This document shows positions 25,077 through 48,665 of a DNA stretch of 64,000 bases, piece by piece. Source of the stretch: an uncultured Bacteroidota bacterium. GTDB lineage: Bacteria > Bacteroidota > Bacteroidia > AKYH767-A > OLB10. Location of the stretch: the NCBI GenBank assembly GCA_903881665.1, contig CAIRUC010000057.1:34538-98537 (forward strand), in the 5' to 3' direction. The notes beneath the pieces were generated by a model that ran no database searches, was not told the DNA's origin, and saw only the letters and a list, made by a program, of their open reading frames with translations. How positions within the stretch are numbered: position 1 is the stretch's first letter; the number at the start of each line of letters is the position of its first letter. The translations under genes were made by a program, and so were the position numbers.

Positions 25077-25153
25077 TGGTGGGCCCACCTGGATTCGAAC
25101 CAGGCACCCACAGATTATGAGTCTGTTGCTCTAACCGAATGAGCTATAGGCCC
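25077..25153 (-). tRNA. tRNA with CAT anticodon (elongator Met, or Ile2 if lysidinylated), CCA encoded
   Basis: Minus strand reads GGGCCTA-TAGCTCATTCGGTTAGAGCA-ACAGA-CTCATAA-TCTGT-GGGTG-CCTGG-TTCGAATCCAGG-TGGGCCC-ACCA. Cloverleaf has a 7-bp acceptor stem with one G-U pair and a GTTCGAATC T-loop. Confidence 0.9.
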
Positions 25154-43505: not shown

Positions 43506-43604
43506 ATCTATATAATCAAAAATTATTCTGATTATTCTAATTCAAAAAGGCTATATCCCTTTATTTAATTTTACGTATTTTAATGCTAATAAAATCCTAT
43601 TGCC

Positions 43605-45302
43605 GTGTACTCTAAAAATTTATCATTCCTCTTTTTAATACTCTTTTTCACTATTCGGGGAAATGCTCAGCGATTCCCTGATGCTAGCGTTGAAGCGCCA
43701 AAGGAATGGAGTGGAAAAGTATTTGAACTAAGTCAAGATTATCCTGTTTCCGTTGTTCCCGAAAAAAATGTACCCTGGTTAAAATATGATTTCAAAACAC
43801 AGCCCACCGAATATCTTATGGCGGTGTACAACTATATATTAGAAGGAAATATTGAAGCAGAGTGGATTGTACAAAACAACAAAGTTCGTAAATGGTATCA
43901 TGCACCGTGGATGCATTATCGCTTATCGGGTGGCGTTGATATGGGCCGCGAACCATTAAACGGAATTACACGTGAAAGAGACTCACACCCTTATGAATTA
44001 AGTTCAACACAAGAGACGGTTTACCAAAATTGGGCAGTTGGTTTTTATAACCCTGAAGGAGGATATACAGTAGGAAAAGTTTGGAAAGATCACAACAAAC
44101 CAGATCCAAGCAAAGCTATTTTTCCTGAAGGAACTATTTCCGCTAAAATAATTTATACCGAAGCTGATTCTAACGAAGTACCTTATCTCGCAGGTGCTCC
44201 TTCAACTACAGCATACGTTTATCGCAAGCCATGGGATAGCAGCAAACGAGAATTAAAAACTTTGCATCTACTTCAAATTGATTTTTCTGTAAAAGATTCA
44301 AGAGCAAAATCAACCACAGGTTGGATAATGGGAAACTTGGTTTATCATGCCGATGTTATAAATGAAAATCCGTGGTTGCGCGTTATGCCAGTAGGATTAT
44401 CATGGGGAAATGATATTGGCATTACACCTGAAAATGTAAAAGGCCATCCATTAACTCAAACGTATATCAATCCGAAAATTCGGCCGATTGCACATTTAGG
44501 CTGGGCAGGACGATTAAATGGAATGATTGACAATCCCCAATCGTCGTGTATTTCTTGTCATGGCACAGCTACTTTCCCTGCCATTATGGAAGGAGCCCCG
44601 CCCGACAATAAGACATCAAAAGAAAGATTAAGCTGGTTTAATGTAAATGCTAATGTAAATTCAGCATATTTACCTGGAACCACTTCTCTTGATTACTCAT
44701 TACAATTGGCCATTGGCATTGAAAATTTTTATAGTTGGAAAATCTTTAATGAGAAAAGAACTGTAACACAAAAAATTATTGATCGATTAGCATCATGGAA
44801 ATATCCTGATGTGTTTTTCTCAACGTTACTAATAATTCTAGTGTTTTTAATATTACTTTGGAAAAAACCAAAATGGTTATTTTCATTTAAAGAAACGACA
44901 GAAAACAAAGCACTATTGTTTATCAGAATTCTTTTTGGAATTATAATGATCGTACATGGGATTCCCGAAATAATAGGTGGATTATCTAGTTGGTTATCGC
45001 TAGGACAAACATTAGCAAACTTTGGGATTTATTCACACCCAATTGCCTGGGGCTACTTTGCAGCTGCTACAGAGACATTAGGCGGATTACTATTGCTAAT
45101 GGGCTTATTATCGCGTCCAGTTGCATGTATGCTCTGTTTTAATATGCTAGTGGCAACTTCTAAGCACTTATTTTTAGGTCAAGGCATCGATTCGGCTATA
45201 CATCCACTATCTTTGTTGGCTATATTTATTTTTTTAGCGATTAGTGGTCCAGGAAAATATAGTGTAGATTATAAATTATCGTTAAAAAACAACAACAGTT
45301 AA
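43605..45302 (+). CDS. Fusion protein: signal peptide + ~380-aa exported domain with a single CxxCH heme-c motif + TM + DoxX-family membrane domain
   Basis: GTG start. Signal peptide MYSKNLSFLFLILFFTIRGNAQ. CISCH at aa 315-319 (nt 44547-44561). TM at aa ~403-419. DoxX-like four-helix region at aa ~433-556 (LLFIRILFGIIMIVHG..., ETLGGLLLLMGLLSRP). Confidence 0.7.
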   Translation: MYSKNLSFLFLILFFTIRGNAQRFPDASVEAPKEWSGKVFELSQDYPVSVVPEKNVPWLKYDFKTQPTEYLMAVYNYILEGNIEAEWIVQNNKVRKWYHAPWMHYRLSGGVDMGREPLNGITRERDSHPYELSSTQETVYQNWAVGFYNPEGGYTVGKVWKDHNKPDPSKAIFPEGTISAKIIYTEADSNEVPYLAGAPSTTAYVYRKPWDSSKRELKTLHLLQIDFSVKDSRAKSTTGWIMGNLVYHADVINENPWLRVMPVGLSWGNDIGITPENVKGHPLTQTYINPKIRPIAHLGWAGRLNGMIDNPQSSCISCHGTATFPAIMEGAPPDNKTSKERLSWFNVNANVNSAYLPGTTSLDYSLQLAIGIENFYSWKIFNEKRTVTQKIIDRLASWKYPDVFFSTLLIILVFLILLWKKPKWLFSFKETTENKALLFIRILFGIIMIVHGIPEIIGGLSSWLSLGQTLANFGIYSHPIAWGYFAAATETLGGLLLLMGLLSRPVACMLCFNMLVATSKHLFLGQGIDSAIHPLSLLAIFIFLAISGPGKYSVDYKLSLKNNNS

Positions 45303-45308
45303 TTATAT

Positions 45309-46631
45309 ATGCAGGACTTACTTTTAGCAGTATCAATACTTAAAGCATTTAGAGAACGTGATTCTTATATGATAGAATCACCATCGGATCTTGAAGTATT
45401 ATACTATAGTAGCCCAACATTTCTTGAACAATTAGAAGAATCTTTCGAAAATGGTTCTTACAAAACAAAGCCTTCTTACTTAATTGAAGTTCCCAAAGAA
45501 AAAGGAATGTTTCGTTATTTTTCGGCACTGCATATTGAAGATCAACTTTATTATTGCTGGTTAACTATCAAATGTTTTCCTTACATTATAAAAAAGATTA
45601 AACCAGAAGTTGTTTCACCAAAGTCGTTATTAGAAGAATACCCCGTTGAAGTTAATTGGAAGGTAAAATTGTTCCGAAATAATTTAGAGGAACAGCGTTT
45701 TATTTACCAAAATTTAAAACCAGAACATCAATATATTTTTCGTTCAGACATTACCAACTTCTATACTAGTATAGATCATTCTATATTAGAGAAAGAATTG
45801 ATAGCTTCTGGTGTCCCTTTTTTGCATGCCACATCACTTTGCACCGCAATGTCGTCGTGGTCAGCATTAATTGGAAGAGGATTACCTCAGATCTTCTGGG
45901 CTAGTGATATCTTGGCCGAATTTTATTTATTTCCATTCGATAATTTTTTAAGACATGGCAATTATTCTTTCTCTCGCTACATCGACAATATTGAAATCTT
46001 TTGTCATTCTAAAACAGAAGCTCGTCAAGCATACTTCGATGTTGTTGGGTTCATTTCTAAAAGAGGAATGTATCTAAAGGAAGAAAAAACAAAATTTCTT
46101 TCTGCTCAGCCTATTAAAAATGAATTAGCGGGAAAGAAATCTTTAAAGGATAAAATTAAAACTACAATCAAGGAACTACCGAAAGGTATATCTAAATATT
46201 ACTATTCTATTGAGGAGGCTTTAGGAATGGTAAATTGCGAAGAGCGCTTGCTGTCTCGTCCTGATGCTACTACTGGCTTCTTAATGCATTATAGGAATAA
46301 CGAAATAAATATCGACAAATCGTTAGCTAATTTTCTTATTTCCCCTAACATTGAATTTAGTTATCAATTGTATTGTGTGCTTCAGTTTATGATTGACTAC
46401 CCAATGCCGTCTTCAAAAACAATAACCGATTCAATAAAAACTTTATTCAACAACCAAACGCAACCGCTTTTTATCCGTTGTTGTGCTGCTCGAATATTGT
46501 TACGCGAAAACAAAAGCAATTCAGAATTGCTAAAAGGTGTAATGTACGCGAGCAATGATGTCGAATTTAAAAATGAAATGCGAGTAATCCTCGAAAGAGA
46601 ACTACCCGCATCACGTATCTTTAATCCTTAA
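45309..46631 (+). CDS. Stand-alone reverse-transcriptase-like protein (UG/Abi-like) with YIDN in place of YxDD and a helical-repeat C-terminal domain
   Basis: RT motifs occur in canonical order. Motif 1/2 is LIEVPKEKGMFRYFSALHIEDQLYYCW. Motif A is YIFRSDITNFYTSIDH (D147). Motif B is RGLPQIFWASDILAEFYLFPFD. Motif C is FSRYIDNIEIF (Y224-I-D-N227, nt 45978-45989). Motif D is RGMYLKEEKTKF. The C-terminal ~150 aa look helical and HEAT-like. Confidence 0.8.
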   Translation: MQDLLLAVSILKAFRERDSYMIESPSDLEVLYYSSPTFLEQLEESFENGSYKTKPSYLIEVPKEKGMFRYFSALHIEDQLYYCWLTIKCFPYIIKKIKPEVVSPKSLLEEYPVEVNWKVKLFRNNLEEQRFIYQNLKPEHQYIFRSDITNFYTSIDHSILEKELIASGVPFLHATSLCTAMSSWSALIGRGLPQIFWASDILAEFYLFPFDNFLRHGNYSFSRYIDNIEIFCHSKTEARQAYFDVVGFISKRGMYLKEEKTKFLSAQPIKNELAGKKSLKDKIKTTIKELPKGISKYYYSIEEALGMVNCEERLLSRPDATTGFLMHYRNNEINIDKSLANFLISPNIEFSYQLYCVLQFMIDYPMPSSKTITDSIKTLFNNQTQPLFIRCCAARILLRENKSNSELLKGVMYASNDVEFKNEMRVILERELPASRIFNP

Positions 46632-47056
46632 TCCCCTATCGTAGCAATTACTTTTAATTCAATTGCAATAGGAGTCGGTAAACAATTTATTTCAATAGTA
46701 GTTCTGCAAGGTTGATTATCTTTAAAATATTCGGCGTACAAACGATTATAAGTTTTGAAATCGTCTTTCATATTGGTTAAAAACACCGTTACATCAACAA
46801 TTTTACCCCAACTACTACCGGCATCTTCTAGAATATAGCGGATGTTTCTGAAAACAGAGTGGCATTGCATTTCAATATCGTACGATACAATATTTCCATT
46901 CTCATCTAATTCAACTCCTGGGATTTTTTTGCTTCCTTTTTCTCTCGGACCAACACCTGATAAGAACAATAAATTTCCTACTCTTCGCGCATGCGGATAT
47001 AAGCCTACCGGCTCAGGCGCTTTCGATGAATTGATTAACTCGTTTGAATCAGCCAT
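46628..47056 (-). CDS. ridA: RidA/YjgF-family reactive-intermediate deaminase
   Basis: 142 aa. APEPVGLYPHARRVGNLLFLSG and the C-terminal RTTIE...LP..IAIE...IA block are typical RidA. Its stop codon overlaps the RT stop codon. Confidence 0.8.
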   Translation of the reverse strand: MADSNELINSSKAPEPVGLYPHARRVGNLLFLSGVGPREKGSKKIPGVELDENGNIVSYDIEMQCHSVFRNIRYILEDAGSSWGKIVDVTVFLTNMKDDFKTYNRLYAEYFKDNQPCRTTIEINCLPTPIAIELKVIATIGD

Positions 47057-47060
47057 ATGT

Positions 47061-48665
47061 TTATTCTATTGTTATTTCAGTTTCTAGTTCCCAATTTGCT
47101 CTAACTTGAAGTCGATCAGACACGACTACTCTTTCGGGTTGTTTCTTGCTGCGAAAATCACCTAAAGTCCATTTTTTATTATTGTCATCATCTTCCACTA
47201 ACCTAATTTTATAGGCATCAGGATTCAAAAATTCAAACTTTACTTCACCATCATTCCTAACTTCTAATTGTTTCATTACATCCAATTTTTCGGAAGTCAA
47301 TTGTAATAAATAATTTTTTTCTGCTTTCAATCCTTTCATTTTAACAATCAGAACTCCCGATAGTCGATCGTTTGCCATTCCAAATGATTTATTTAATGTA
47401 TCATTCATTAAACCATAAATATCAGTTATTGCGCCAGGAAGTATCATTACTCTATATTTTTCTCCTCGACGCCAATTATAATTTACATTACATTCTCGCT
47501 GAATATCTCCTGGCTTTAGTTTTATTATAACTGAATCCTCCAAAATTGTATCGTGATAAATGTAAGCATATTTATTACATACTTTAATAGGATGTTCACT
47601 CTTAAACATTAAACTTAATGTAGTATCGGATGACTGCGGAATTTGGTACACAAACAAACTCAACTTTTCTTGTTCTTTCTTTTTTGTTATACCCGAGCCT
47701 AACTTTATTTCTACCGTATCATTTAACATTTTATCATCGTAAAATCTCAACTTTATTGAATCTTGTAAGGTGTCTTTTGCATAAACCATTAAAGTATCAC
47801 GATTGACACTCCATTCAACTAAGCTCTTTCTTTTTGTTGCATAATTAAGTTCTTCAACCAAAGCAACCGTATTCGGTTTATTCAACCCTATTGCTGCGTA
47901 ATATTTATCCTTCTTCGACACTTTCAAGATTTTTAAAACCGGAAACTCTTGAGGTGAAACATTAAAATCAACAACTGATTGTCCTGGAATTTTTATTTCG
48001 CTTTCAATAAAGCCCATTTGTTCCTCTTCATCACATTTGTAATTGCTGTTCTTATCATCTACTACAAAAACAAAATATTTCCCTTCTGCGATATTTGAAA
48101 TAGTATATGCTCCTTTCTCATCAGTTTTAGAAAAATAATCAGGCCGTTTTGTGAAAATTAAGGAGTCTGGCGACATCAAACCTTCTTTCCTATACATTAA
48201 AACAGAAAGCCCTTTTAATACTTGATTGCTCTTCGCTTCTCTTACAGTACCATGCAACATCAACGTATCAATTATTAAACCAGTAGAAAAAATAAATCTA
48301 TAATTTTCTAACGCATTACCTTCGTTGATGTCGGCAATCGCTTTTCCGAAATTAATGGTATACGTTGTATTTTCGCGTAATGAATCAGGTAGCTTAATTA
48401 AAATTTCCTTTTTTGCAGCTTTTATTTCAGGGGCAAAAGGCATTAAAGGAGATATTAGTAACTGTCCATTTAAATCTGTTAACTGAACAAATTCATCAAA
48501 TTTCAATTTTATTATTTTTTCATGAAAATCGATAGCCGCATTAATTGGATCTGTTTCTTTGACAACCGGTGGTTTAATATCTTTTTCGCCTCCTGTGGGA
48601 GATACTTTATTGGCACAAGATGCCATAAACAACGAACCGACAATGAACAATATTATTTTTTTCAT
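47061..48665 (-). CDS. Ig-like-domain lipoprotein (SbsA_Ig/Big_5-like), function unknown
   Basis: Lipoprotein signal ...LFMASC, then KPPVVKETDPINAAIDF...IKLKFDEFV, typical of Bacteroidota Ig-like lipoproteins. Confidence 0.6.
   Translation of the reverse strand: MKKIILFIVGSLFMASCANKVSPTGGEKDIKPPVVKETDPINAAIDFHEKIIKLKFDEFVQLTDLNGQLLISPLMPFAPEIKAAKKEILIKLPDSLRENTTYTINFGKAIADINEGNALENYRFIFSTGLIIDTLMLHGTVREAKSNQVLKGLSVLMYRKEGLMSPDSLIFTKRPDYFSKTDEKGAYTISNIAEGKYFVFVVDDKNSNYKCDEEEQMGFIESEIKIPGQSVVDFNVSPQEFPVLKILKVSKKDKYYAAIGLNKPNTVALVEELNYATKRKSLVEWSVNRDTLMVYAKDTLQDSIKLRFYDDKMLNDTVEIKLGSGITKKKEQEKLSLFVYQIPQSSDTTLSLMFKSEHPIKVCNKYAYIYHDTILEDSVIIKLKPGDIQRECNVNYNWRRGEKYRVMILPGAITDIYGLMNDTLNKSFGMANDRLSGVLIVKMKGLKAEKNYLLQLTSEKLDVMKQLEVRNDGEVKFEFLNPDAYKIRLVEDDDNNKKWTLGDFRSKKQPERVVVSDRLQVRANWELETEITIE

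Follow-up and report, generated by a model that had tools for sequence, protein, structure and literature searches.

We analysed a window of 64,000 nucleotides (nt) from an uncultured Bacteroidota bacterium (GenBank assembly GCA_903881665.1, contig CAIRUC010000057.1, positions 34,538 to 98,537 of the forward strand; coordinates below are those of the window), and describe here a reverse transcriptase (RT) gene at 45309..46631 (+) together with the gene directly upstream of it, at 43605..45302 (+). The RT belongs to a distinct, previously unnamed clade near UG21, in which the second aspartate of motif C is an asparagine (hereafter D-N, as opposed to D-D), and the upstream gene is predicted to encode a cytochrome-P460-like periplasmic domain fused to a DoxX membrane domain. 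We propose that the two are the halves of a conserved module, a remodelled RT downstream and a membrane protein upstream, in a chromosomally stable operon that is rare and vertically kept. The placement and fold of the RT, its D-N pair, the linkage and co-divergence of the two genes, their gain or loss as a unit, the purifying selection and the lack of an RNA partner are matters on which we are highly confident. For the module taken as a whole, with the catalysis, priming residue, physical coupling and biological role that we infer for it, we regard the chances of being right as evenly poised.

The 440-residue product is an RT of the Class 1 UG/Abi type with a helical-repeat tail. Pfam RVT_1 (PF00078) matches residues 128-269 with 47.2 bits against a cutoff of 29.6 (E = 2.8e-12), motifs A-D follow one another in the canonical order and align with those of solved RTs, and an RT fold is predicted; the RT call of a preliminary description of this DNA, and the motifs named there, thus proved sound. 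The open reading frame (ORF) itself was confirmed by the ORF map. Among the PADLOC models the top match is RT_UG21 (1.1e-53, 180.8 bits, residues 15-298, profile positions 16-292 of 503), and the next-ranked ones are all Class 1 UG groups (UG22, Drt8/UG7, UG23, UG20, UG32 and UG19). The protein is not, however, a regular UG21 member. Genuine UG21 proteins (P0014, P0016 and P0165) reach 498-543 bits over profile positions 2-502 of 503, and UG13a proteins reach 575-615 bits on their own model, whereas the D-N clade attains 181-227 bits on the UG21 profile, over the RT domain only. In place of the UG21-typical PQG of motif B and YVDDIR of motif C, the clade carries PQ[IVL] and [YLE]xDNxE. In a neighbour-joining distance tree of the RT domain (71 sequences), it is monophyletic in 49 of 50 bootstraps, with UG21-like YVDDIR/PQG sequences as its nearest neighbours.

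The AlphaFold2 (AF2) model, built from an alignment of 17 sequences, has a mean predicted local distance difference test score (pLDDT) of 86.5 and a predicted template modelling score of 0.83. It comprises fingers and palm (about residues 30-270, 45396..46118, as also delimited by the UG21 and RVT_1 profile alignments and a residue census), a low-confidence linker (about residues 271-309, 46119..46235; mean pLDDT per 10-residue block over residues 271-310, 67-49) and an alphaRep/HEAT-like domain of eight C-terminal helices (about residues 310-431, 46236..46601; pLDDT about 88-96). Foldseek matches the model with probability 1.00 to many RT structures of the right-hand fingers/palm fold. Its top PDB matches are DRT4/UG15, AbiK, DRT6, Abi-P2 and AbiA, over about 420-500 aligned columns (best chain of each enzyme: E 5.5e-10 to 6.1e-08, template modelling score 0.35-0.55, sequence identity 13-17%), and the repeat domain has a weak sequence match to the designed alphaRep protein 6ft5. 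These results bear out the helical tail, the RT plus alpha-repeat architecture and the kinship with AbiK and Abi-P2 that had been suggested from the sequence. The kinship with DRT2-type enzymes suggested alongside does not stand: DRT2 is a Class 2 enzyme dependent on a non-coding RNA (ncRNA), and the Drt2 model gives 25 bits against a cutoff of 390. Indeed, the NCBIfam models for group II intron, Drt2-5 and retron RTs all score far under their cutoffs (score/cutoff pairs of 58/300 for group II introns, 50/200, 39/450, 28/235 for retrons and 25/390 for Drt2).

Motif C of the window protein reads Y224-I-D226-N227-I-E229 (45978..45995), with Asn in place of the second Asp, and re-reading the codons for D226 and N227 (GAC AAT, 45984-45989) confirmed that YIDN is truly encoded. 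Thus, of the catalytic triad formed by the motif A Asp and the two of YxDD, D147 (codon GAC, 45747..45749) and D226 are present and position 227 is Asn. This had been thought possibly a recent mutation or an error, which the survey of orthologues contradicts. The clade, assembled from close homologues, a further search and genes recovered from their loci, counts 26 sequences with identity down to about 27%; D-N is found in 8/8 close homologues (43-81% identity), in 15/15 sequences of alignment A4 and, with the locus-derived genes, in 26/26, so that it is conserved and not strain-specific. In an alignment of 157 sequences, comprising the best 150 of 13,449 matches in a representative library of 1.84 billion proteins plus the earlier homologues, 12 carry D-N, 144 D-D and one A-D. 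The clade holds 11 of the 12 D-N sequences, and 144 of the 146 sequences outside it are D-D. We conclude that a single exchange of the second motif C Asp for Asn took place and became fixed in the clade. The twelfth D-N sequence, P0155 (542 residues, from the representative library), is an unrelated UG21-like RT outside the clade with motif C RYSDNLRV; the same substitution has therefore arisen independently at least once.

A census of residues in the 26 clade members and the 144 D-D relatives shows a wider change, which the preliminary description had missed. K63 and R69 of the fingers, D147 and F151 of motif A, Q194 of motif B, D226, and K260 of motif D are as conserved in the clade as in the D-D relatives; D147, for instance, is present in 26/26 and 143/144, respectively. 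The position of the YxDD Tyr (224), aromatic in 144/144 D-D relatives, is E in 19, Y in 5 and L in 2 clade members, and the D+5 position (152), likewise aromatic in 144/144, is G, S or C in 22/26 and Y in 4, which means that most of the clade lacks both residues. Glu229 is invariant in the clade and R or D in the D-D relatives. Two tyrosines, Y111 (upstream of motif A) and Y298, are also invariant in the clade and are not Tyr in the D-D relatives; at position 298 (Tyr in 26/26) the most frequent residues listed for the latter are L, gap, G, A, F and R. The pair Y298-Y299, which lies within the linker (46200-46205), is invariant in alignment A3. Within the clade, the window's own subgroup looks the most canonical, having YIDN as well as F-Y following the motif A Asp, which is why the change seemed at first reading to be a single transition.

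The roles of the equivalent residues in DRT4 help to rationalize this pattern. In that enzyme, metal binding falls to Asp149, Asp240 and Asp241, and Tyr238 makes a stacking contact with the 3' end of the DNA (PMC12783706). Judged by these roles, the clade has retained the active site on its dNTP/triphosphate side and altered it on the metal-A/primer side. Asparagine is still able to ligate a metal. Furthermore, D-N supports full catalysis in the Mononegavirales palm polymerases, whose motif C is GDN/GDNE (PMC11633731). Therefore, D-N alone is no proof of inactivity.

The RT gene had been described as an orphan. This label does not hold, for the upstream P460-like/DoxX gene is a conserved, co-diverging operon neighbour at all loci examined. 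The fusion lies directly 5' of the RT in the window, in L001-L005, L108-L111 and on the contig of P0160, and a reverse search from three independently found DoxX-fusion proteins led to a D-N RT downstream each time; the RT was found from the DoxX side in L112, L113 and L115-L117. The pair is also present in L199-L207, truncated contigs included; on two incomplete metagenome contigs, the C-terminal part of the fusion is still seen immediately 5' of the RT. Across the family, the RT starts at +6 to -8 nt relative to the partner stop, that is, the two genes abut or overlap, and in the window the junction is 6 nt (45303..45308), as the gene calls show. The sole non-coding DNA of the module is a 99-nt region 5' of the operon (43506..43604, + strand), which is the presumed promoter site. 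A scan for sigma-70 promoters and terminators, ill-suited to Bacteroidota promoters, returned counts equal to the shuffled expectation.

Genomes of the close homologues keep the gene order of the window (ABC transporter, DoxX gene, RT, and convergent ridA-Big_5-GAF-PRTase-HflX), but the pair occurs in at least five different neighbourhoods, and in loci with other flanks the partner homologues measure 564-601 residues. Enolase and citrate synthase lie upstream and a Cu-oxidase downstream in L108; an amino-acid permease lies upstream in L109, L110, L115 and L116, with Mrp/NifU downstream, and also in L112, L113 and the P0160 contig, with an 800-residue ORF and an HMGL-like gene downstream; the flanks of L111 differ from all others. 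The permease contexts also hold a second, stand-alone DoxX gene of 148 residues, close to the pair, on the opposite strand and just upstream of the permease (3979-4425 in L112, 3967-4413 in L113, 1216-1662 in L116). Sequence identities of the two module proteins co-vary (78/77, 59/44, 62/49, 64/59 and 48/31%). At the corresponding site of a related metagenome-assembled genome (MAG; L121), an ABC ATPase 57% identical to that of the window is followed first by a 176-nt spacer and next by ridA-Big_5, and neither the DoxX fusion nor the RT is present, from which we deduce that the two genes were gained or lost as a unit. No RT was found near homologues of the periplasmic domain alone (0/71 loci, from other phyla). 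Taken together, gene order and co-divergence suggest that the P460-like/DoxX gene is an obligate operon partner of the clade RTs.

The 565-residue partner starts with a signal/anchor helix, continues with about 340 residues of beta-rich periplasmic domain and ends in a multi-helix DoxX membrane domain (Pfam DoxX, 1.7e-12 at residues 436-518). Its AF2 model has a pLDDT of 86.6; Foldseek finds a resemblance of the C-terminal part to NACHO/TMEM35A, a protein of the DoxX fold (E 0.013), and a weak one of the N-terminal domain to cytochrome P460 (E 0.2). The Pfam match of the window protein to Cytochrome_P460 is sub-threshold, and PF16694 is precomputed on many homologues that have the N-terminal domain only. 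The periplasmic domain contains CxxCH, the signature of c-type haem binding, as C315-I-S-C318-H319 (44547..44561, + strand), and C315, C318 and H319 are invariant in 32 partner homologues, including single-domain proteins from other phyla. Sequence comparison of the partner with the PDB gave no significant match, and NCBIfam gave only a sub-threshold match to HvfX (DoxX-like). The CxxCH domain, as its homologues P0186-P0285 show, belongs to a large uncharacterised family of ~380-490 residues, found in Acidobacteriota, Verrucomicrobiota, Planctomycetota, Lysobacter, Dyella and Chryseobacterium, of which Pfam recognises only some members as Cytochrome_P460. In a few of these proteins, the domain is joined to SH3 (PF08239) or to domains of secreted nucleases (PF00565 and PF01223 in P0250).

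No RNA partner was detected. Rfam scans of 40-52 kb at E ≤ 1 and of the whole window at the gathering threshold gave nothing relevant (the sole gathering-level match in the 64 kb is a single tRNA gene, 25080-25153 on the - strand), and RNAalifold on the upstream regions of seven family loci found no common sequence, no consensus structure and 0 predicted pairs. A hidden ncRNA was ruled out on these two grounds. The genes are packed as tightly as had been reported: the coding sequence upstream closes at 45302, two bases are common to the stop codons of the RT (46629-46631) and of the convergent ridA (46628-46630), and the flanks of the RT in the window are therefore 0-6 nt; across the family, the downstream spacers range from overlap to 124 nt, those of other family loci measuring 9 to 124 nt. 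Searches for flanking repeats, for repeats resembling the template and variable repeats (TR/VR) of diversity-generating retroelements (DGRs) and for mobile-element boundary repeats returned only short, A+T-rich chance matches, by which mobile-element boundaries and DGR repeats were ruled out. The earlier judgement that the gene is not a group II intron, DGR or retron RT is upheld by these results, by the NCBIfam scores and by the absence of a conserved non-coding flank.

The missing RNA had been listed as an oddity, but it is what one expects of this class. Class 1 UG/Abi RTs characterised so far synthesize DNA without a nucleic-acid template, primed by a protein tyrosine (10.64898/2026.05.04.722794; PMC12783706), and AbiK, Abi-P2, AbiA, DRT4 and DRT3b are the characterised template-independent members (PMC12783706; 10.64898/2026.05.04.722794). 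The priming tyrosine varies by group: Y44 in AbiK, Y61 in Abi-P2, Y125 in DRT4, Y298/Y303 of the RT-alphaRep linker in AbiA, and Y666 in DRT3b (PMC12783706; 10.64898/2026.05.04.722794).

The RT gene bears no mark of recent arrival in its composition. Its G+C content is 33.3% against 36.0% for the window, with only a shallow dip in the sliding profile, and its G+C at third codon positions (0.279) is inside the range of nine neighbouring genes (0.250-0.335). The suggested G+C dip is therefore no compositional anomaly, and horizontal transfer as deduced from such an anomaly was ruled out. The RT is under purifying selection: its ratio of nonsynonymous to synonymous substitution rates (dN/dS) is 0.048, against 0.022-0.058 for neighbouring genes (L001 against L007). 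Its divergence tracks that of its neighbours, the identities between the window and L005 being 43% for the RT, 45% for Big_5, 55% for the ATPase, 58% for the DoxX protein and 78% for HflX. Clade members were found in 5 of 185,579 GTDB species representatives, all of them uncultured Bacteroidota MAGs, and activated sludge is the source of one metagenome copy; scanning metagenomes, and GTDB a second time, yielded few extra loci, so the family is rare. PHROGs gave generic RT matches only and the viral contigs of IMG/VR no clade member, on which basis a phage origin was ruled out.

For the way the module might work, we propose the following. The product of the first gene would be a periplasmic haem-c-type domain (CxxCH, cytochrome-P460-like) tethered to a DoxX-fold membrane domain, and that of the second a cytoplasmic Class 1 UG/Abi-type RT with its alpha-helical repeat domain. 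Like DRT4, AbiK and AbiA, the RT would need no RNA template; it would bind dNTPs and nucleotidylate a tyrosine of its own, Y298/Y299 in the flexible linker or Y111 being candidates by analogy with the known priming sites. With its metal-A/primer site remodelled, the RT would probably make short products, work slowly or require a different metal, and the output or activation of the RT might be coupled to the co-translated membrane partner. That the RT still binds dNTPs and carries out some protein-primed nucleotidyl transfer seems most likely, because the residues of the dNTP site do not vary, Asn, the constant replacement, could still ligate a metal, and new invariant tyrosines have appeared.

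Several facts weigh against this proposal. The second Asp of DRT4 (Asp241) helps metal coordination (PMC12783706), and by analogy an Asn in its place may cripple catalysis; most clade members have also lost the YxDD Tyr and an aromatic residue at D+5, which points in that direction too. The physical coupling of the RT to the membrane protein is read from gene order, the linkage statistics come from about 15 non-redundant pairs that possibly share a common ancestry, and the module as such is a deduction from sequence in rare uncultured organisms, the family being known solely from a handful of Bacteroidota MAGs. Two further facts weaken a role in defence. The genes within ±8 kb (ABC transporter, RidA, Big_5, GAF, PRTase, HflX, TonB and peptidase M1) form a housekeeping neighbourhood and no defence island, and the partner matches no PADLOC model, by which a known defence protein was ruled out; with no viral copies, the anti-phage or defence-island association typical of Class 1 RTs is not seen here.

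Thus, the biological role can be argued from two sides. The kinship of the RT, its membrane-protein partner, a patchy occurrence and the gain or loss of the genes as a unit speak for defence or stress, whereas the housekeeping context, the long vertical co-divergence, the low dN/dS, the absence from phages and a partner drawn from a widespread periplasmic family speak for a domesticated physiological function. We lean slightly to conflict or stress over envelope or redox physiology. Domestication in its full form, in which an RT-derived enzyme and a periplasmic haem/DoxX protein act together in normal physiology and not in phage defence, perhaps by making a protein-linked nucleotide or short-DNA signal on an envelope or redox cue, appears to us rather unlikely. 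A rival reading is that no DNA is made at all, and that the RT fold, once domesticated, serves as a non-catalytic nucleotide-binding or scaffold subunit, regulating the haem/DoxX protein or assembling with it, in a housekeeping redox or envelope role. Such a pseudo-enzyme would account for the exchange of a metal ligand from D to N, given what the second Asp does for metal binding in DRT4 (PMC12783706), and for the loss in most members of the primer-contacting Tyr and the D+5 aromatic residue; the apparently vertical inheritance, the housekeeping-like dN/dS, the lack of defence neighbours and of copies in viral contigs, and the partner's descent from a widespread periplasmic family without defence annotation agree with it as well. 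However, it is unusual for a dead enzyme to keep K63, R69, D147, F151, Q194, D226 and K260 across 27-80% identity. Moreover, the residue that replaces the Asp in the clade is always Asn, a possible metal ligand, and never a random one, D-N sites are catalytic in other palm polymerases (PMC11633731), and the clade-specific invariant tyrosines resemble priming sites. We hold the pseudo-enzyme to be a serious rival, if less likely than not.

The remaining explanations fare worse against the family-wide data. If the gene were an ordinary stand-alone UG21-type defence RT ("DRT other") with a DoxX neighbour by chance, RT_UG21 would indeed be its best PADLOC match; but this is very unlikely given the gap between the scores of genuine members over the whole profile and those of the clade over the RT domain only, the adjacency of DoxX at every locus examined, with at least five sets of flanks and overlapping stop and start codons, and the co-divergence of the two proteins. 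The idea of an RNA-templated retroelement RT, be it of the Class 2 DRT, retron, DGR or group II intron kind, with its RNA concealed in the neighbouring genes has nothing in its favour beyond weak RT-domain similarity to those families. We find it highly improbable, considering the scores far below the group II, retron and Drt2 cutoffs, an alpha-repeat tail and best structural matches that are those of Class 1, and the lack of any Rfam match, of TR/VR-like or flanking repeats and of a conserved non-coding region in the family loci. Lastly, Asn is one G-to-A transition away from Asp, as would be expected of a decaying gene or of a sequencing or assembly error at codon 227. The chance of this is negligible: Asn is present in 26/26 independent assemblies, the reading frames are unbroken, with a dN/dS of about 0.05, and the orthologue survey refutes it.

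Some features of the neighbourhood deserve mention in their own right. The product of ridA (46628-47056, - strand; Ribonuc_L-PSP) aligns to the C-terminal portion of PADLOC's PD-T4-2_B model (2.4e-18), probably through a RidA-like domain common to both, so that ridA is unlikely to be a defence gene; beyond the window's own lineage, ridA and the RT are not conserved neighbours. Just 3' of the ridA stop lies a terminator-like hairpin (46577-46612, - strand; 16 pairs, of which 6 are G-C, and then a T-run), and ridA's likely terminator is thus embedded in the last ~55 nt of the convergent RT coding sequence. Beside ridA, the Big_5 lipoprotein gene (47061-48665, - strand) has homologues throughout Bacteroidota (Flavobacteriales, Saprospiraceae and others; L118-L197), but the Big_5-ridA adjacency is confined to the RT-carrying L118 and L119 and only four more loci (L120-L122 and L127), and so serves as a marker for the host lineage.

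The significance of the clade lies in its being a natural, selectively maintained remodelling of an RT catalytic centre, in which an Asp has become Asn, the YxDD Tyr has been lost and a new invariant Glu and tyrosines have appeared. Class 1 UG/Abi RTs have been a source of new DNA-synthesis chemistries, with random, homopolymeric and protein-templated products, and to our knowledge many of their groups, UG21 included, have no known function. The UG/Abi family is already known for a great variety of partners; as far as our literature search found, a DoxX membrane anchor bearing a haem-type periplasmic domain is a partner type new for any RT, and the search for DoxX proteins together with RTs returned no relevant paper. 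The two genes make a clonable test case for the question of whether an RT active site can run on a D-N pair, and the module also bears on how a cytoplasmic RT might communicate with the cell envelope. Annotation pipelines would call the gene DRT/UG21 and miss both the altered active site and the partner. Were the domesticated physiological role true, the clade would constitute a new functional class of prokaryotic RTs using a D-N active site.

Among known systems, UG21 (Mestre et al. 2022, PMC9226505) is the closest, being the best RT-domain profile match (181 bits) and the nearest in the tree, with a C-terminal HEAT-like alpha-repeat tail in both. The clade differs from it in scoring below member level, in a tail that the profile does not match, in length (about 440 residues versus about 500-550), in motif C (D-N versus YVDD) and motif B (PQ[IV] versus PQG), and in the obligate P460-like/DoxX partner suggested above, an association that we found reported for no RT. 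DRT4/UG15, AbiK, Abi-P2, AbiA and DRT6 share the overall RT plus alphaRep fold, none of them has an ncRNA, and the invariant tyrosines of the clade are plausible counterparts of the priming sites Tyr125 of DRT4 and Tyr298/303 of the AbiA linker (PMC12783706). Unlike the clade, which is known here from sequence, these enzymes are single-gene or defence-island systems and keep YxDD, mutation of which abolishes activity and defence (PMC12783706).

A two-gene operon of an RT and a multi-pass membrane protein has precedents in UG17, UG23 or AbiA with SLATT proteins and in retrons with two-transmembrane (2TM) effectors (PMC9226505). In contrast to those systems, the partner in the clade is a DoxX-fold domain with a large periplasmic haem-type domain, it is encoded first, and there is no defence-island context. 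At the level of a single motif, the Mononegavirales L polymerase provides an analogy, for its palm domain carries Asp-Asn in motif C (GDN/GDNE), is active and coordinates two Mg2+ (PMC11633731), although it is an unrelated RNA-dependent RNA polymerase. Finally, domesticated RTs such as G2L4 and rvt belong to other RT lineages, retain the two motif C aspartates and lack a membrane partner, but they resemble the clade in being single-copy, chromosomally stable and under purifying selection, and they serve a host function (PMC12337344; rvt discussed in PMC9226505).

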